A stretch of DNA of 45,109 bases from Candidatus Yonathbacteria bacterium RIFCSPHIGHO2_02_FULL_44_14 (GTDB taxonomy: Bacteria > Patescibacteriota > Minisyncoccia > Phycocordibacterales > UBA1550), in the NCBI GenBank assembly GCA_001823535.1, contig MHUT01000009.1, positions 1 through 45,109 of the forward strand. Direction: 5' to 3'. Below the pieces are notes generated by a model. The model worked only from the letters and a program-made list of their open reading frames with translations. It was not told the origin of the DNA and made no database searches. Shown piece by piece: positions 3,140 to 40,302 of the stretch (its first letter is position 1; each line of letters begins with the position of its first letter). Made by a program: the position numbers and the translations under genes.

Positions 3140-3628
3140 TTATTCCTGTTCGTCGTCGGATAAATGTGCGAGTAGCTTTAATTTATTTTCAAAGTACCAA
3201 ATCGCAGTAAATACAAAAAGCGCAAAGATAGTAGTAAAGACTGCCAAAGCATAAAATCCGTACCCAATAGCAATACCAATGCCTGCGGCGACCCATATCC
3301 CAGCCGCGGTGGTGACCCCGCTTACTTTCGCGTCTTTAAAAAAAATGAGGCCGGCACCAATAAAACCAATTCCTTGAATAATCGCAGCGGTAATACGCGC
3401 CGAGGAATCAGTGAACACGCCCAGAACGCTGCCATACCCACCTGATGCGAGAATACCAATGATTACGAAAAGCGCTGATCCCATAGTGACGAGTCCGTAT
3501 GTTCGCATCCCAGCAGGCTTTCCCGCGATTGCACGCTCGATACCAAGGGACATGCCTAGAATAAGCGCAGTAAATAATTTAAGAATTATTTCCAAGTCCT
3601 GGTTAGTTAAAAGTGTTGTGATATCCAT
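3140..3628 (-). CDS. MgtC/SapB family membrane protein
   Basis: LGIER..KPAGMRTYGLV, RITAAIIQGIGFIGAG, GVTTAAGIWVAAGIG. Confidence 0.92.
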   Translation of the reverse strand: MDITTLLTNQDLEIILKLFTALILGMSLGIERAIAGKPAGMRTYGLVTMGSALFVIIGILASGGYGSVLGVFTDSSARITAAIIQGIGFIGAGLIFFKDAKVSGVTTAAGIWVAAGIGIAIGYGFYALAVFTTIFALFVFTAIWYFENKLKLLAHLSDDEQE

Positions 3629-3662: not shown

Positions 3663-3847
3663 CAGGACTCGTATGTTTGGATGCAATACGAGCACGTAAG
3701 TCAATTTACTAATTGAGCGACAAGGAGCAAAAATGCGAGCTGTACGTCGCGCTTCAATCGACACTGCGCGACTCGATTTTGCAAAATCGACAGTGAACGT
3801 TTTTGCAACGAAGTCAACGAGGTAGTGCGCCAAACACACGGGTCCTG
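3663..3847. repeat. Structured intergenic element, family A copy 1
   Basis: 3677-3721 (45 nt) is identical to 18613-18657. The element is closed by a terminal stem caggactcgtatgtttgg/ccaaacacacgggtcctg. Confidence 0.85.
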
Positions 3848-4765: not shown

Positions 4766-5857
4766 CTATGTAGTTTCGATTATTCCTCCGCCAAGGCATT
4801 CATTCCCATCATAGAGTACTACTGACTGCCCTGCATCAAATACTGCGGGTTTTTCAAGCCGAAGCGAGAGAGTATTGGTATTCAAAGCTGTAATTTTGCA
4901 CTTGTGTTGCTCGCCATGGTACCGTACTTGTGCTGTATAAGTTTTTTTGGTATCTGGGGGCACTCCGCCACAAAAACTTGCTTGGGATGCTCGTAGTTCC
5001 TGAGAGGCACATTCTAGGGCTGTTTTCTGCATATGCGCCACCGTGATCGTATTCGCGACAAGGTCCTTCTTAACAACATAAAACGGCGTATCATCTGCAC
5101 TTTTCTTCGTCACGGTAAAACCATGTCGTTCGCCTAGTGTATAAAAATATGCACCGGAGTGAGTACCGATTGCCTCTCCTTTTTCATTCAGCACGCTCCC
5201 CTCTTTCTCTTTTATAAAATGTGCAAGAAAATCTTTCATATCAAGTTTCCCCACAAAACAGAGACCCTGACTGTCATTCTTTTCCGCTACGGGAAGACCA
5301 AACTTTTGTGCAAGTGCGCGGACCTGTGACTTTTTGTAACCACCGATTGGGAAAAACGTTTTACTCAATTGCTCCTGCCCGAGTGTCCACAAAAAATATG
5401 ATTGATCTTTTGTGGCGTCTACCCCCGCAAGCATTTTGAACTTGTTTTCTTTTTTATCATGTACCACCTGCGCATAGTGCCCCGTCGCCACAAAATCAGC
5501 ACCTTCTTTCGTTGAGCGACGAAAAAATGCACCAAACTTTACCTCGCGGTTGCACATCACGTCGGGGTTCGGCGTGCGCCCAGCCTTGTACTCACGAATC
5601 ATGTAGTCCGCAACACCTTCTTTATATTCCCTTTCAAAATCCCAAGTAAGGAGTGTTATTCCAAGCGTCGCTGCCACACGCATCGCATCAAGACGTTCCT
5701 CGCGCCAAGTGCATGGCAAAAAATCCGGTTGCCATACTTTCATAAAAACACCGGTCACTTCATACCCTGCTTTCTGTAGAAGCGCTGCGGAAACCGACGA
5801 GTCCACTCCGCCAGACATTCCCACAAATACCTTTCCTTTCGATTTTTTCGCTACCAT
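4766..5857 (-). CDS. mnmA: tRNA 2-thiouridylase MnmA
   Basis: GMSGGVDSSV PP-loop, TPNPDVMCNREVKFG, KDQSYFL, SQGLCFVG. The ATG at 5857 is preferred as start. Confidence 0.97.
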   Translation of the reverse strand: MVAKKSKGKVFVGMSGGVDSSVSAALLQKAGYEVTGVFMKVWQPDFLPCTWREERLDAMRVAATLGITLLTWDFEREYKEGVADYMIREYKAGRTPNPDVMCNREVKFGAFFRRSTKEGADFVATGHYAQVVHDKKENKFKMLAGVDATKDQSYFLWTLGQEQLSKTFFPIGGYKKSQVRALAQKFGLPVAEKNDSQGLCFVGKLDMKDFLAHFIKEKEGSVLNEKGEAIGTHSGAYFYTLGERHGFTVTKKSADDTPFYVVKKDLVANTITVAHMQKTALECASQELRASQASFCGGVPPDTKKTYTAQVRYHGEQHKCKITALNTNTLSLRLEKPAVFDAGQSVVLYDGNECLGGGIIETT

Positions 5858-5882
5858 ACCCAAAAACTACCATATTGAGATG

Positions 5883-6905
5883 CTATCGCAAATATTTTTC
5901 TTTATTCGCTTTATGCTCCTCAAATGTTTTCGCATAGTGCATTACGGCGTCTTTATCGGAGAGATAATAAAGGTATGCTGACTCAATCGGATGGACAGCT
6001 GCGCGAATAGCCGCAATCCCAGGATTCCCGATGGGTCCAGAAGGCAAGCCTTTGTTACGATAGGTGTTGTATGCTGATTTTATTTGCAAATCCGCTGACG
6101 TGAGATCACTCGATTTTTTACCCAAAAGGTACATAAAGGTTGCATCAACCTGTAATGGCATTCCTTTTGAGATTCGCTTCCACAAAATCCCCGAAACGAT
6201 AGCTTTGTCCTCCTCTGTCGTTGCCTCTTTCTCAAGAATTGATGCCATAATGATGACGTCACGCTCTGTATGTCCCGACATCTCAATTTCACCTCTCCAG
6301 GGCGCTATTCTTTTATTAAAATTTGCAATCATTGTCTTCTCAACCTCTTCTGCTGTCACATTTTCTGAAAAGAAGTATGTATCTGGAAAAAGGAGCCCTT
6401 CCTGCGTATATGCATGCTCGAGGAAAAACGCGGAGTCGAATTTTTGAATGTTTTTTCCCAAGACCGCCGCAATTTCTTTATTAGACATCCCTTCGGGAAT
6501 GGTGACGCGCACCGCAGGAATTCCCGAGATTCCGTGTGCAATGCGCATCGCAATCGCGCATGCCGAGATCGGTTCTTTAAAAAGATACTGACCGGCGAAT
6601 ATGGGTTTTTTCCCGCCAACTATTTTGGCACAGAGTTCAAAAAGACTTTTTGAATGAACCATACTCTCTTTATCAAGAAGAGTGGATACTTCTGCGAGCG
6701 AGGCACCTTTTTTTATGGTGATCATTTTATCTTTCGGAAAACTAAATGGTGGCATTAAAAGATAAGATATTGTCGCACAAAAAAACACGACCGTAAGCAC
6801 AGAAAAAATGACGATTTTTGAACTTCGCTCTTCTATTCCGATTGATGTCAGGGATACTCGAAATCGACCAATTCCAATTTCTTCTTTTTCTTGTGATGGT
6901 TCCAT
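5883..6905 (-). CDS. mltG: Endolytic transglycosylase MltG (YceG-like)
   Basis: N-terminal TM helix, VTIPEG, EGLLFPDTY, MASILEKE, LQVDAT, YNTYRNKGLPSGPIGNPG. Confidence 0.95.
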   Translation of the reverse strand: MEPSQEKEEIGIGRFRVSLTSIGIEERSSKIVIFSVLTVVFFCATISYLLMPPFSFPKDKMITIKKGASLAEVSTLLDKESMVHSKSLFELCAKIVGGKKPIFAGQYLFKEPISACAIAMRIAHGISGIPAVRVTIPEGMSNKEIAAVLGKNIQKFDSAFFLEHAYTQEGLLFPDTYFFSENVTAEEVEKTMIANFNKRIAPWRGEIEMSGHTERDVIIMASILEKEATTEEDKAIVSGILWKRISKGMPLQVDATFMYLLGKKSSDLTSADLQIKSAYNTYRNKGLPSGPIGNPGIAAIRAAVHPIESAYLYYLSDKDAVMHYAKTFEEHKANKEKYLR

Positions 6906-17355: not shown

Positions 17356-17460
17356 AAATTATGCCAGATACGAGGCGTGACGAGGTTTTGTGAGGAGGTG
17401 TACGAATAGTACTCTGACGAGCAAAACCGAAGTCATAACGACGTAGATGATATGATTTTA
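17356..17460. repeat. Structured intergenic element, diverged family A member
   Basis: Shares atacgag..gac(g/a)agg and gaagtc..acga.gtag with the 3663 and 18599 elements; tgac..ggttttg/caaaacc..gtca stems. Confidence 0.6.
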
Positions 17461-18555
17461 AACGCGGAATTCGATGACGTCACCGTCCTTGACAACATAT
17501 TCCTTCCCTTCTATTCTCAAAAGCCCCTTCTCTTTCGCGTTTGCAAACGAACCCGCATCGAGCAAATCTTTCCAAAAAATAACTTCTGCGCGAATGAATT
17601 TGTCTTTGAAATCCGTATGAATTGCCATTCCAGCAACCGGTGCGGTGCTTCCCTTTTTGATAGTCCATGCGCGCGTCTCTTTTTCACCCGTTGTAAAATA
17701 AGTCTCGAGACCGAGCATCTCGTAGCCTTTTGTGATTAGGTCGTTGATGCCATCGTTTTTGGAACCGAGCTCTGCACGAAACATTTCTTTTTCCTCTCCT
17801 TCAAATGCGGCAAGCTCCTGCTCTACCCCTGCATCCACCACCACGTAGTGTACGCCGAGTGACTTCAAATATTCCAGAAGCGCAGTGTAGCGCGGGTCAT
17901 TTATTTCATCGAGATTTTTACCACCCGCTTTTTTATTCAAAACATACAAAACCGGCTTCAGTGTAAGGAGGTGCATTGCGCGGACAACAAGAACTTCATC
18001 ATCCTTGAGAATTACGGTGCGTGCGAGCTTCCCCTGTGACAAAGCCTCAGAAACCTTTTGGAGGATTTCTTTTTCTTTTACAGCTTCCTTATCGCCACGC
18101 TTCACGTCTTTTTCGATATTCGCAAGGCGCTTTGTCACGGTCTGCTCATCAGCAAGAATGAGCTCAAGATTAATCGTCTCAATATCTGAAACAGGATCTA
18201 CTTTGCCATGCACGTGAATCACATTATCATCTTCAAAGATACGAACCACCTCTGCAATAGCATCGGTCTCACGGATGTGCGAAAGAAATTGATTGCCAAG
18301 TCCTTCACCTTCAGATGCGCCTTTTACAAGCCCCGCTATATCCACAAACTCCACTGCTGCGGGAATAGTTTTTTGAGTTTTAGAAAACTCTGCGAGCTTA
18401 TGGAGGCGTTCATCGGGTACCGCAACCACACCCACTGATGGATCTATTGTACAAAACGGGTAATTCTCTGCGGGAACAGATTTTTTCGTAAGTGCGTTAA
18501 AAAGTGTGGACTTGCCCACATTGGGTAGCCCTACGATTCCGATTGCGAGTGCCAT
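17458..18555 (-). CDS. ychF: Redox-regulated ATPase YchF
   Basis: GIVGLPNVGKSTLFN, NYPFCTIDP, DIAGLV..GEGLGNQFL, C-terminal TGS domain. Confidence 0.97.
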   Translation of the reverse strand: MALAIGIVGLPNVGKSTLFNALTKKSVPAENYPFCTIDPSVGVVAVPDERLHKLAEFSKTQKTIPAAVEFVDIAGLVKGASEGEGLGNQFLSHIRETDAIAEVVRIFEDDNVIHVHGKVDPVSDIETINLELILADEQTVTKRLANIEKDVKRGDKEAVKEKEILQKVSEALSQGKLARTVILKDDEVLVVRAMHLLTLKPVLYVLNKKAGGKNLDEINDPRYTALLEYLKSLGVHYVVVDAGVEQELAAFEGEEKEMFRAELGSKNDGINDLITKGYEMLGLETYFTTGEKETRAWTIKKGSTAPVAGMAIHTDFKDKFIRAEVIFWKDLLDAGSFANAKEKGLLRIEGKEYVVKDGDVIEFRV

Positions 18556-18598: not shown

Positions 18599-18746
18599 TA
18601 GAACTTTTGTGGTTGGATGCAATACGAGCACGTAAGTCAATTTACTAATTGAGCGACGAGGAACAAAAATATGAACCGTTCTTAGCGTACTGTGAGTGTT
18701 TTTGCGACAAGGTCAACGAAGCAGTGTGCCAACTATATAAGTTCTA
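18599..18746. repeat. Structured intergenic element, family A copy 2
   Basis: 45 nt identical to 3677-3721; terminal stem tagaacttttgtggttgg/ccaactatataagttcta. Confidence 0.85.
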
Positions 18747-22215: not shown

Positions 22216-22243
22216 TTGACTTTTTCTGAGGTACTGGTATAAT
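22216..22243 (+). promoter_or_regulatory. Sigma70 promoter with extended -10 (cassette 1)
   Basis: TTGACT-16-TATAAT, with TGG immediately before the -10. Confidence 0.75.
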
Positions 22244-22255
22244 ACAACGAGAATC

Positions 22256-22343
22256 GAGGTGCTCTTTGAGAGCCTTGTATATTTTATTAACCTTTCTCCT
22301 TGTAGGGATCTTCCCTTCAAGGAGACCACGACAAGAGAATTTT
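22256..22343 (+). repeat. 88-nt structured leader, copy 1
   Basis: Base-for-base identical to 23111-23198. Confidence 0.95.
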
Positions 22344-22355
22344 AGGAGGATTATA

Positions 22356-22952
22356 GTGAATACTCCACTAATAGATCTTGGAGTGAGTTGCGGTGGACTC
22401 GGCGGTTTTTTCGCTAAAGAGAAAAGACTAACCGGGCCAAACTACAGGCATGGTGAGTTGCTCTTGATTCCACTCCCGCCAGAAGGTACATGGCAGGACG
22501 AAGATCCACGCTTAGTCACTGCCCTGGTGTATTCTCCGGTATCCGCGGAAGAAGTGATGGGGAAGAATTTTTTCGGACGTACCGCGTACGAGAAAGAACT
22601 TAGACTTAACAAGAGCCTCCCAGAAAAACACTATCTTAAATTGGGCTTACCGGGTGTTGTTCCATTTTTCTTGGACACACTCAATTCTCCATGTCCGTTC
22701 GTCAAAGGAAGATTGATCCGCCACACGCATGTGCTTATGATATTGGAAAAACGCGCATGGAAAGGAAAAGTCCCCTGCAAAAGTGATAGGTGGAAACTAG
22801 GGTGGGTTCTCTGTCTCAAAGGACCTTCATATTCTGTAGAGGCAGCAAGATCCCTGGACCTGCCGCCAGAATACAAGAAAATGTATATGTTAGGAAAAGA
22901 AGAAACCCTGAGTGTCGTAATAGAAAGAAAGTACGACGTAAGGGAGAGATGA
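22356..22952 (+). CDS. Hypothetical protein, paralog 1
   Basis: GTG start 6 nt after AGGAGG. Aligns with 23212-23790 (MGxNFxG, DTLxSPCPF, TH, LPxEYK). Confidence 0.75.
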   Translation: MNTPLIDLGVSCGGLGGFFAKEKRLTGPNYRHGELLLIPLPPEGTWQDEDPRLVTALVYSPVSAEEVMGKNFFGRTAYEKELRLNKSLPEKHYLKLGLPGVVPFFLDTLNSPCPFVKGRLIRHTHVLMILEKRAWKGKVPCKSDRWKLGWVLCLKGPSYSVEAARSLDLPPEYKKMYMLGKEETLSVVIERKYDVRER

Positions 22953-22961
22953 AGTAGTATC

Positions 22962-23005
22962 AATGGGGCTTCGTTGCTTTCGCAAACGAGACCCCATTCT
23001 TTTTA
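22962..23005 (+). terminator. Intrinsic terminator of cassette 1
   Basis: aatggggc..gaccccatt hairpin followed by cttttt. Confidence 0.7.
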
Positions 23006-23071
23006 TAAAATCACTACAGAAATTCAAATCTTCTTCTTAATACATTTTGATACATAGTACCATGCGGGGGA

Positions 23072-23099
23072 TTGACATTTTCTCTTGTACTGGTATAAT
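23072..23099 (+). promoter_or_regulatory. Sigma70 promoter with extended -10 (cassette 2)
   Basis: TTGACA-16-TATAAT. Shares gtactggtataat with cassette 1. Confidence 0.8.
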
Positions 23100-23110
23100 T
23101 AAACTTGGAT

Positions 23111-23198
23111 GAGGTGCTCTTTGAGAGCCTTGTATATTTTATTAACCTTTCTCCTTGTAGGGATCTTCCCTTCAAGGAGACCACGACAAGAGAATTTT
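23111..23198 (+). repeat. 88-nt structured leader, copy 2
   Basis: Identical to 22256-22343, offset by 855 nt. Confidence 0.95.
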
Positions 23199-23211
23199 TA
23201 AGGAGAGCACT

Positions 23212-23790
23212 ATGTGTATTCCACAAAAATGCCTTGTTTGGGATAATAGTTGTGGTGGTATCAATGATGAAGAAAATTCGGCTAGGCGATTAGAGTATTG
23301 TGTCACGCCAAGGATCTCAGAAACCGTAGGATGTAATGAGTACGGTGAGTTTGAAGTAACAATCTATAATCAAAGAATATCCGCGCGGAAAATTATGGGC
23401 AGTAATTTTTCCGGACTTTATGAGTTTGAAAAAGAAGCGGGGCTTCCAATGCTGTCAGAAAAAGAGTATGTACGGCGTGGCCTTACGTGCCGTGTTCCAT
23501 GGACAGCAGATACGTTACTGTCTCCGTGTCCATTCCACGAAGGGCTGCGCATTTGCCAAACTCATTTTCTTGGTCTGGTAGAAGTTCGTAAATGGGAAGG
23601 AATACTTCATTCCTCAGAAAGCCCTTATGAGCTACAATGGATTCTCCAGCTAATAAGGACTCCGCTTACCGAGGAAGAAGTTTTGTCGTTAGTCCTACCA
23701 GTAGAATATAAACCTCAACGGATGCTCGACGAGGAACAAAACAAAGTCGTGTTCCTCATCAAAAGGAAACCGGACAGAGAGGAATACTGA
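23212..23790 (+). CDS. Hypothetical protein, paralog 2
   Basis: AAGGAG SD. Clear but distant similarity to 22356-22952. Confidence 0.75.
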   Translation: MCIPQKCLVWDNSCGGINDEENSARRLEYCVTPRISETVGCNEYGEFEVTIYNQRISARKIMGSNFSGLYEFEKEAGLPMLSEKEYVRRGLTCRVPWTADTLLSPCPFHEGLRICQTHFLGLVEVRKWEGILHSSESPYELQWILQLIRTPLTEEEVLSLVLPVEYKPQRMLDEEQNKVVFLIKRKPDREEY

Positions 23791-23807
23791 GTAATTTGAA
23801 TTTGAAT

Positions 23808-23844
23808 AAAGACTCTTTTGCGTAAGCAAGGGAGTCTTTTTTTT
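23808..23844. terminator. Terminator between cassette 2 and the convergent atpC
   Basis: aaagactcttttgc-gtaa-gcaagggagtctttttttt. Confidence 0.75.
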
Positions 23845-24079
23845 ACAAGATTACGGTCGCTTCGTTACCGCCAACCTCAAGAATACCGTCTGTTACCGCA
23901 ATGCGTATTTCTTTTCCCTCACTATCAACTACCTTAAGCTCACCCTTTTTGAGTGGTGTTACGAGCGGTGCATGATGAGGAAGTATGGTGAGATCACCCA
24001 AAGCGCCCGTGCAAGACAAGCTCGCAGCCATGCCTTTGAAAAGCACTTCATCTACCTTTGCTATGGTGAGCTTCATCAT
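23843..24079 (-). CDS. atpC: ATP synthase epsilon, beta-sandwich domain only
   Basis: GDLTILPHHAPLVTPLKKG, DGILEV; last gene of the atp operon. Confidence 0.88.
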   Translation of the reverse strand: MMKLTIAKVDEVLFKGMAASLSCTGALGDLTILPHHAPLVTPLKKGELKVVDSEGKEIRIAVTDGILEVGGNEATVIL

Positions 24080-24120
24080 GATGTTGATTTTAAAGGAGCG
24101 AAGCGACTATTAAAATCACT

Positions 24121-24216
24121 ACCCCGCCCATTCTTATTCTAATAACATTACTATTTTAAAATACTTTATACAATTTTCTTACAATTTGAACAATCGCCAC
24201 AATGAATGGGCGGGGT
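24121..24216. repeat. 13-bp inverted repeat around an AT-rich spacer
   Basis: accccgcccattc (24121-24133) / gaatgggcggggt (24204-24216). Confidence 0.75.
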
Positions 24217-39905: not shown

Positions 39906-40219
39906 TTGTGCGCCGGCGAATTAGCAAATTCGAGTCTTGGACTACAGGATTCGAATCCTTACAAAAGCCAACTGCTTGGCTTTTTCCCGACGCTACAAAA
40001 ATCGAAGCCCCATACTCTTTCGAGTATGGGGCTTGATTTCTTGTGCGCCGGGAAAGTCGGCCCCGAGTTACTAAATCGCTTCGCTCCTAAGTACTCGCAG
40101 CCCCGGCTCACTGTCGCCTTGTGACATGTTCCGCCTTTCGAATCCTTACGCAAGCAAAGCAGTTTGCTTGCTCCCGGCGCACAATTAAAAAACTCCTCAT
40201 TTGAGGAGTTTTTTAATTG
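39906..40219. repeat. tRNA-Tyr 3'-end mirror array
   Basis: Direct copies 39906-39916 and 40041-40054; interrupted inverted copies 39950-39998 and 40137-40184; two long hairpins. Confidence 0.9.
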
Positions 40220-40302
40220 TGCGCCGGGAAGGATTCGAACCTTCGAAGCCCGGAGGCGAGAGATTTACAGTCTCTTGTGATTGACCACTCCACCACCGAC
40301 GC
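40220..40302 (-). tRNA. tRNA-Tyr(GTA)
   Basis: GCGTCGG/CCGGCGC acceptor, A73, AGAGA-CTGTAAA-TCTCT, long variable arm. CCA is not encoded. Confidence 0.96.

Follow-up and report, generated by a model that had tools for sequence, protein, structure and literature searches.

The DNA considered here (all of it referred to below as the window) is a 45,109-nucleotide (nt) contig, MHUT01000009.1, of Candidatus Yonathbacteria bacterium RIFCSPHIGHO2_02_FULL_44_14. Between its UDG and atpC genes lie two consecutive units, each composed of a promoter, a leader, a Shine-Dalgarno (SD) sequence, an open reading frame (ORF) and a terminator of its own. The leaders share an exact 88-nt direct repeat (22256-22343 and 23111-23198, 855 nt apart), while the ORFs behind them are only distantly similar. 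The preliminary description of the locus had drawn this anatomy twice over, with identical leaders before diverged ORFs, and it stands: a window-wide repeat search confirms the repeat, shuffled versions of the window contain no match to its 38-nt core, and coordinates can now be given for both units. Only the start of ORF1 has to be moved, from 22357 to the GTG codon at 22356.

The first unit begins directly 3' of the UDG stop codon with promoter 1 (22216-22243; this and all other elements of the two units are on the plus strand), which reads TTGACT-16-TATAAT, has an extended -10 TG and agrees with the consensus at 11 of 12 positions. A variable stretch of 12 nt (22244-22255), likely to contain the transcription start, separates its -10 element from leader copy 1 (22256-22343), which makes up nearly the entire 5' untranslated region (UTR). 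Folding places a 5'-proximal, lineage-variable hairpin, P1, at 22256-22276 (GAGGUGCUC-UUU-GAGAGCCUU); a second hairpin, P2, at 22295-22325 (U-CUCCUUG-U-AGGGA-UCU-UCCCU-U-CAAGGAG-A) has 14 pairs and is followed by a conserved single-stranded block (22326-22343, CCACGACAAGAGAAUUUU), which is recognized in alignments and reads CCCAAyACAGGAGAAAC in a second clade of relatives. SD 1 (AGGAGG, 22344-22349) lies 6 nt 5' of the GTG start of ORF1 (22356-22952; 198 amino acids (aa)), a member of an unannotated family and the faster-evolving of the two paralogues. Terminator 1 (22965-23004; GGGGCUUCGUUGC...GCAAACGAGACCCC then AUUCUUUUU) was read from the sequence and is unlisted by the automatic scan. The second unit consists of promoter 2 (23072-23099; TTGACA-16-TATAAT with an extended -10 TG, matching all 12 consensus positions), the 88 nt of leader copy 2 (23111-23198, with P1 at 23111-23131 and P2 at 23150-23180), SD 2 (AAGGAG, 23200-23205, 6 nt 5' of the ATG and resembling the SD context of an orthologue, at locus L025, that is discussed below), ORF2 (23212-23790; 192 aa, ATG start) and terminator 2 (23808-23846; a 14-bp stem and then a T-run). 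The automatic scan places the latter at 23808-23839; it stands back to back with the end of atpC (23843-24079, minus strand), which is convergent with ORF2.

Both copies of the repeat are placed 11-12 nt 3' of a sigma-70-type promoter with the extended -10 TG. The pattern TTGAC-N17-19-TATAAT occurs at two sites in 45 kb, both of them here, against a chance expectation of 0.08. The 11-12-nt spacers between the -10 elements and the repeat are unrelated in sequence; promoter and spacer taken together are 64% identical between the units, and the sequence just 3' of the repeat is ~60% identical. ORF1 and ORF2 are 36% identical as proteins (BLASTP E 5e-28) and 48% identical as codon-aligned DNA, in which the longest in-register identical run is 8 nt. 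Set against 88 matches in 88 positions, these figures make the identical block sharp-edged.

Misassembly, which by the preliminary description would have refuted its reading, is excluded. The 1.66-kb region is identical to the letter in eight of ten independently assembled contigs (from ENA and JGI samples), and the remaining two, L005 and L009, break at the repeat. In the Logan unitigs of four runs the 88-mer forms a unitig of its own, 88 nt long, with ~1.3-3.7x, or roughly twice, the depth of its flanks (47.7 vs 27-32, 16.1 vs 9-12, 48.8 vs 13-19 and 10.4 vs 4-6 in the individual runs). Its neighbors are a unitig ending at 22285, one spanning 22314-23140 and one starting at 23169, and the edges of this two-copy graph allow a single path, UDG-leader-ORF1-leader-ORF2. 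The depth of the unitig also argues against many further genomic copies of the 88-mer, and the unitigs of the four runs contain neither variant letters nor deletion joints.

The leader is also present in related genomes. Nine other distinct versions were recovered (L012/13, L014, L015/16, L017, L018, L019/20, L022, L023 and L025-27), as well as a truncated copy comprising the 3' part (L024); wherever upstream DNA is present, the leader lies between a TTGACTTTTT...TATAAT promoter and a gene of the same family. In these relatives the leaders are 105-115 nt long and retain one order of blocks: GUUUGAR near the 5' end, a U-rich/UAAAAUYAAC segment, the P2 hairpin, CAAyACAGGAGAAAC, and the SD. P2 takes the form UCUCCUU(A/G/GU/GA)AGGGAUCUUCCCUU(-/C/U)AAGGAGACC, and its DNA core, TCTCCTT..AGGGATCTTCCCTT..AAGGAGACC, is nearly invariant, while the associated proteins are 25-47% identical. 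A covariance model made from ten leaders recognizes two copies in the window and no more (61.5 bits for copy 1 and 61.7 bits for copy 2, with the next match at 15.7 bits) and one copy in each relative locus. When 241 million metagenome records were scanned for the hairpin core, three loci came up, all of them 5' of this protein family; viral contigs gave zero matches to the core, and an exact hairpin scan of species-representative genomes likewise gave none. The preliminary description had allowed that the leader might belong to a known cis-regulatory family. Rfam 15 (4227 families) provides no such match: across the window only four tRNAs pass the gathering threshold, and a permissive search gives the leader best matches of 13-19 bits against thresholds of 49-50 (E 2-8). 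The leader is exclusively linked to one gene family, and it is conserved across genomes.

The loci of these relatives share a common setting. L025-27, which represent the nearest relative and encode the protein P0009, are fully syntenic with the window (YchF, CAP, methyltransferase, two hypotheticals, UDG, a single family gene, atpC, atpD). One family gene also occupies the UDG-atpC slot at L014, L017, L018, L019 and L022, whereas the P0057 contig and L015 have two in tandem; the contig of L023 is short and lacks the upstream flank. At L012 (730-2307) and L024 (670-1119) the place of atpC behind an A-type family gene with the same leader is taken by a convergent SulP/STAS transporter gene, and the cassette therefore also occurs, or has moved, outside the UDG-atpC slot. 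In run X3 a contig of the same sample joins the window's hairpin, at 22294, to an upstream flank of the L019 type (AGGTTTCCGGGTATTTTTGTTAAAATTAAC); related organisms with variant leaders therefore co-occur in the sample. Two distant family members, P0010 (L011) and P0063 (L021), are without the leader. Ahead of P0010 (L011 60-175) a ~35-nt tandem duplication (CATAGTTAGGTTTTTsGTGAGG...) takes the place of P2, and in L011 a PemK-type toxin gene follows atpD where the window has atpG.

The proteins themselves are hard to place. ORF1, ORF2 and ten homologues have no match in Pfam or NCBIfam, a PDB sequence search with ORF1 and ORF2 returned noise only, and in word-indexed homologue searches with single proteins each query retrieved itself alone. 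A small family was recovered by exhaustive profile search of 1.84 billion proteins together with a profile-seeded search: P0009 (187 aa) is the closest relative (E 8e-45 in the profile search), and the members fall into a size class of about fifteen proteins of 180-210 aa and a class of long forms of ~270-320 aa. The core motif of the long forms is approximately IMG.NF.G.EEW...FPW...L.SPCPF..GK.IKETHF, in which a Pro, a His, a Thr and a Trp are invariant and a Cys is nearly so, and the sharing of this conserved core marks the family members as real conserved proteins. A protein-pattern scan of species-representative genomes found no family match; the members are too divergent for a joint alignment to seed a scan. 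The AlphaFold model of ORF2 has an overall predicted local distance difference test score (pLDDT) of 74, rising above 85 across most of residues 60-190. Foldseek found no significant match for it in the PDB or BFVD and none for the model of a long homologue in the PDB, and no significant match to the C-type lectin (CLec) fold. TvpA and FGE were considered as structural relatives and set aside, their Foldseek E values (>2 only) not being evidence.

One long homologue does have an informative neighborhood. P0063 (318 aa; locus L021, 5001-7902, on a 768-kb JGI contig) adjoins bAvd and reverse-transcriptase genes. A variable repeat (VR, 5834-5950), the last 117 nt of the gene, is 84% identical to an intergenic template repeat (TR, 6313-6429), and nearly all of the mismatches are at TR adenines; P0063 is thus the variable protein of a diversity-generating retroelement (DGR). 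The likeness of the window proteins to such targets lies in the FPW..L.SPCPF..GK.IKETHF core that the long homologues (~280-320 aa) share; the difference is that the window proteins are short forms, without the ~70-90 residues that precede the C-terminal strand. A crude test for reverse-transcriptase motifs in the window's ORFs of >=150 aa was negative, and the window-wide repeat search disclosed no TR/VR-type repeat touching the 3' ends of the ORFs. For these three reasons the window proteins are not filed as DGR targets: the hallmarks found at the distant homologue's locus are absent from the window.

Comparison with the syntenic L025 locus puts rates to these elements. Protein identity between the window and L025 is 96% for AtpD, 82% for AtpC, 76% for UDG and 47% for the family protein. 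At synonymous third positions of conserved codons identity is down to ~53% (36-55%, depending on the gene), which is near saturation, whereas for the leader as a whole it is 76.7% (with differences in 21 of 90 aligned columns) and from P2 onward ~90%. The family protein thus evolves much faster than its neighbor genes, and the leader core much more slowly than silent sites; the leader is under strong purifying selection, which explains half of the paradox of identical leaders before diverged genes. Strong selection was one of the explanations offered in the preliminary description, and the near-invariance of the core in the nine other versions of the leader, in front of proteins that have retained so little identity, bears it out.

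The other half of the paradox concerns the age of the duplication. A distance tree has the form (ORF1,(ORF2,P0009)): ORF2 and its orthologue, the single-copy P0009, are sisters and 47.2% identical, while ORF1, on a longer branch, is nearly equidistant from the two (36.5% identical to ORF2 and 37.7% to P0009). The sister relationship of ORF2 and P0009, with ORF1 excluded, means that the duplication cannot be younger than the split from the L025 lineage; that lineage lost one gene copy after the split. Selection alone is insufficient for 88 identities in 88 positions because the identity covers P1 and the U/A-rich block, which vary between genomes. Leaders that had evolved independently would be expected to differ at 21 or more of 90 positions, as those of the window and L025 do; the two copies in this genome differ at none of 88, and the boundaries of the identity are abrupt. 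The simplest account is that gene conversion, for which the conserved core was the seed, recently made the leaders identical along this tract. Gene conversion had also been proposed in the preliminary description, and the locus has the marks of such a tract: complete identity in the leaders against 64% upstream and 48% in the ORFs, a duplication that predates the orthologue, and an orthologous leader that is less similar to either copy than the copies are to each other.

Two other accounts of the identity have to be weighed against conversion. The repeat could simply be young, the result of an ordinary recent duplication, or spurious, the result of a collapsed or chimeric assembly. An exact repeat is what recent duplication usually leaves behind, and contigs L005 and L009 do break at this one. 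However, the eight independent assemblies agree across both copies, the unitig graph and its roughly twofold depth fit two tandem copies, and ORF1 does not resemble ORF2 more than it resembles the orthologue from a different genome; unrelated nucleotides on either side of the 88-mer and the large distance between the ORFs exclude a very recent duplication. Recency or artefact is the least credible of all the alternatives considered here, with a probability close to nil. More has to be said about a cassette system in which the leader would serve as a recombination handle, that is, as a specific site (comparable to integron attC or to the vis of mycoplasma vsp/vpma loci) used to insert, excise or exchange variable genes. 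At L014 and L017 the UDG and atpC flanks are ~88% identical and the promoter and leader ~96% identical, apart from an 8-nt indel, and yet the gene is B-type at L014 and A-type at L017, different paralogue types with 57.6% DNA identity. The number of genes in the one slot also varies (two at P0057/L015; one at L025, L018 and L019), and a number of short contigs break off within the leader (L016, L024). What disfavors a dedicated handle is the rest of the anatomy. No integrase or recombinase is found among the called genes from YchF to atpB (~6 kb on either side), every ORF has its own consensus promoter, and the repeat lies 5' rather than 3' of the ORFs, which is not the arrangement of an integron cassette; nor is it that of a vsp/vpma-type locus, since the repeats are direct, the units have the same orientation, no recombinase is among the neighbors, and the four runs show, in contig-level data, neither deletion or circle joints nor an excess of depth over ORF1. 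Moreover, RecA-type recombination between conserved leaders accounts for the changes in copy number as well as for conversion. The recombination handle is therefore quite improbable, if less so than recency. The preliminary description had coupled two ideas under this heading, and they part company here: a variable gene family behind a shared leader is what the relatives display, with one or two genes of differing paralogue types behind ~96% identical promoter-leaders, whereas dedicated site-specific cassette machinery finds no support: no integrase or recombinase is among the called genes of the neighborhood, the promoters are separate, and four runs show no variation in array length. The pattern of gene content fits an ancestral tandem pair followed by differential loss or exchange, by way of homologous recombination between leaders and between the similar terminators.

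Whether the conserved leader is read as RNA, as DNA or as coding sequence is a separate question, on which the P2 hairpin has most to say. P2 folds in every leader sequence and is the sole helix that RNAalifold retains; in a hand-registered alignment of 10 sequences its partners pair in 97% of 134 cells, compared with at most 75% when the partners are slid. Six one-sided changes all produce G.U pairs on the sense strand, and three lineages have one extra base pair, on both arms. In L025 the P1 helix (GAGGUAUU-UCUUU-GAAACCUC) is kept through a change of C-G to U-A (two sequences, compared by eye), and in its counterpart an A-U pair in L015 is matched by G-C in L018 (again two sequences). Long-range pairings that would link the U/A-rich and CA-rich blocks to each other or to the SD are not kept across relatives, and neither is P1. 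The evidence on P2 leans towards RNA but is statistically not decisive, and the core could work as DNA instead: a dimeric DNA-binding regulator would read the sequence of a 27-29-bp palindromic operator, CTCCTTAAGGGA-TCT-TCCCTTAAGGAG, and there, as a roadblock at ~+45 to +75, block or modulate transcription initiated at the strong promoter. The palindrome is perfect in most relatives, near-invariance extends to its sequence as well as to its pairing, P2 contains no double-sided compensatory change, and the strong conservation of the flanks fits recognition by a protein. However, differences between the arms keep the RNA pairing and break the DNA symmetry: in L022 the two half-sites disagree as DNA at 5 of 13 positions (four G.U and one A.C mismatch) while the RNA keeps 12 of 13 pairs, and the two differences in L019 and the one in L012 are all G.U. 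In addition, the site is far 3' of the promoter, without overlap, and there is no adjacent regulator gene. An operator is, in our estimate, unlikely, though it is the most serious competitor of RNA. A coding leader is far less probable, and indeed very nearly dismissible. It would supply a hydrophobic N-terminal extension or signal peptide to ORF1 (from a TTG at 22266) and a 30-aa leader peptide ahead of ORF2 (from an ATG at 23109). The frame is indeed open from 22266 into ORF1, with a hydrophobic stretch (ALYILLTFLLVGIF), and the members of the NCBI cluster are 225- and 228-aa versions. But the frame in copy 2 ends at a TAA just 5' of the SD, indels of 1-2 nt in P2 break it in the relatives, whose starts and stops are unrelated, a canonical SD is well spaced before the GTG at 22356, and homology within the family begins 3' of that start. 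A leader or signal peptide was rejected for want of a conserved frame. The same open frame (22266-22355) yields a spurious hydrophobic N-terminus in the NCBI versions of the protein; ENA and JGI gene calls start at the GTG at 22356.

Familiar classes of RNA element were considered and rejected. A riboswitch does not agree with a single conserved helix (a perfect 12-bp hairpin in most relatives) that has no ligand pocket, leaves the true SD outside P2 and is not followed by a U-tract. On the same grounds an attenuator is unlikely, and so is an RNA thermometer, since the perfect, stable P2 hairpin does not hold the true SD.

What is favored, as moderately probable, is that the repeat is a conserved cis-acting leader in the 5' UTR, most likely acting as RNA, homogenized in this genome by gene conversion, and that it is lineage-specific and new. 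The leader consists of a variable P1, a U/A-rich block, a near-invariant P2 of 12-14 bp, an unpaired CA- and purine-rich block, SD-like in most relatives, and the true SD; P2 has an anti-SD-like sequence in its 5' arm (CUCCUU) and an SD-like one in its 3' arm (AAGGAG). Behind an unusually strong consensus promoter it would determine how stable the mRNA is and how it is translated, the hairpins impeding decay from the 5' end and the unpaired SD-like tract offering the 30S subunit a landing or protecting site. Stabilization of the mRNA together with ribosome recruitment, in the manner of STAB-SD elements, is a possible mechanism by analogy, to be held tentatively. Superimposed on it there is probably a trans-acting factor that reads the hairpin, since the sequence is so constant; conservation at the level of sequence suggests that a shared factor of this kind would recognize P2 and its flanks. 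Action as RNA, the stabilizing or translational mechanism and the trans-acting factor are all what we infer from the sequences. The history of the locus would have begun with an old tandem duplication of one promoter-leader-gene-terminator unit, after which the proteins diverged quickly; purifying selection would have kept the leaders similar enough for homologous recombination, and this would have allowed the recent conversion tract that brought them to identity letter by letter.

Several observations weigh against this interpretation. No covariation measure for P2 rises above shuffled controls, and the helix is without double-sided compensatory changes; by our own count wobble-preserving transitions in P2 outnumber disruptive ones by 6 to 2, which gives p ~0.15. 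P1 is unalignable across the two clades. The argument for conversion assumes roughly comparable protein rates, and ORF1 has the longer branch. A search for RNA runs with this sequence found none. With regard to mechanism, the STAB-SD analogy is only partial, since P2 sequesters its own SD-like 3' arm and the other SD-like tract has a degenerate sequence (AAGAGA) both in the window and in L025, and the near-invariance of the sequence, loop included, exceeds what a generic stabilizer hairpin needs.

A bolder version of the RNA interpretation can be formulated. The leader might represent a new class of cis-regulatory RNA in Patescibacteria-like members of the candidate phyla radiation (CPR), in which a trans-acting factor reads the SD/anti-SD hairpin and co-regulates a hypervariable family related to DGR targets, the leader also being a portable homology handle by which homologous recombination duplicates, removes or swaps variable genes within one slot. 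As a whole this is rather doubtful. If true, it would amount to a recombinase-free cassette system for a fast-evolving protein, possibly one involved in host interaction.

Gene regulation in these uncultivated, mostly symbiotic bacteria is barely known, and descriptions of regulatory RNAs from them are few. The leader is compact and testable: about 100 nt with one hairpin, placed behind the strongest promoter of the region and better conserved than the protein that it would control. The linked protein family evolves several times faster than its neighbors, and its long relatives are hypermutated by retroelements, which is a signature of a ligand-binding or conflict protein. The locus would also provide a clean natural case of concerted evolution confined to a non-coding leader, with the coding regions diverging freely, and it carries a warning for annotation in that an open frame through the leader gave rise to over-extended public protein models. 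The interest is limited by the narrow distribution of the element and by a mechanism that is inferred.

Three other elements of the window deserve a brief description. The spacer between atpD and atpC contains a ~42-nt imperfect inverted repeat (24084-24125; minus strand GTGATTTTAATAGTCGCTTCGCTCCTTTAAAATCAAC, just before the atpC ATG) that has a word depth of 134-296x against ~10-30x in its flanks. Matches of 90-95% occur in many other metagenome contigs, where the sequence to either side is unrelated; it is a short element, either dispersed or widely conserved. It has one copy in the window and no Rfam match; the spacer is absent in L025, and there is no obvious SD before atpC. A second 88-nt repeat (3664-3751 and 18600-18687) is 84% identical between its copies, with weaker similarity beyond them and no Rfam match. 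Both copies are intergenic, ~35-45 nt 5' of a minus-strand 162-aa ORF (3140-3628) and of YchF (17458-18555), and may be another shared leader or promoter element. Finally, two tRNA-like stretches (39909-39990 and 40042-40180), uncalled by ARAGORN and by Rfam, lie beside tRNA-Tyr (40219-40302, minus strand) and share with it acceptor-like ends (GTGCGCCGG.../...CCGGCGCAC) and a T-loop-like motif (GGATTCGAATCC); the stretch at 40042-40180 contains GGAGCGAAGCGA, the core of the dispersed element at 24086-24117.

How does the leader compare with known systems? It resembles the cis-regulatory leader families of Rfam and the orphan motifs of comparative genomics in being a structured non-coding segment between promoter and SD that is tied to one gene family, recurs in related genomes and is better conserved than the gene, and it differs from them in its single simple hairpin, which has no internal-loop pocket and is not aptamer-like, in its narrow distribution and in its weak covariation. 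A functional parallel is provided by the STAB-SD 5' mRNA stabilizer of cry3A (PMC4113751) and by the SD-dependent block to RNase J1 on hbs mRNA (PMC5737220). Common to these stabilizers and the present leader are SD-like sequences that do not initiate translation (here AAGGAG in the 3' arm of P2, and ACAGGAGAA in relatives), a long 5' UTR, a strong promoter and hairpins near the 5' end, a likeness that would account for a module designed for high expression; the difference is that here P2 locks up the best SD-like copy, and the unpaired one has a degenerate sequence in this genome. Mycoplasma vsp, vlp and vpma loci have conserved 5'-UTR blocks before variable surface-protein genes, and they undergo site-specific inversion through a dedicated recombinase that acts on a site in the UTR, usually with one active promoter. 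They are like the present locus in combining highly divergent genes with a near-identical upstream non-coding block and a gene content that varies between strains, and unlike it in that the window has a promoter for each gene, one orientation and no recombinase among the neighbors. Gene conversion is known to drive the concerted evolution of paralogues such as tufA/tufB and the rRNA operons. The leaders share with concerted evolution of that kind (reviewed in PMC6002687) a sharp-edged identical tract between paralogous units that are older than a species split; here, however, it is the non-coding leader alone that would have been homogenized while the coding regions escaped, which is the reverse of the usual pattern.

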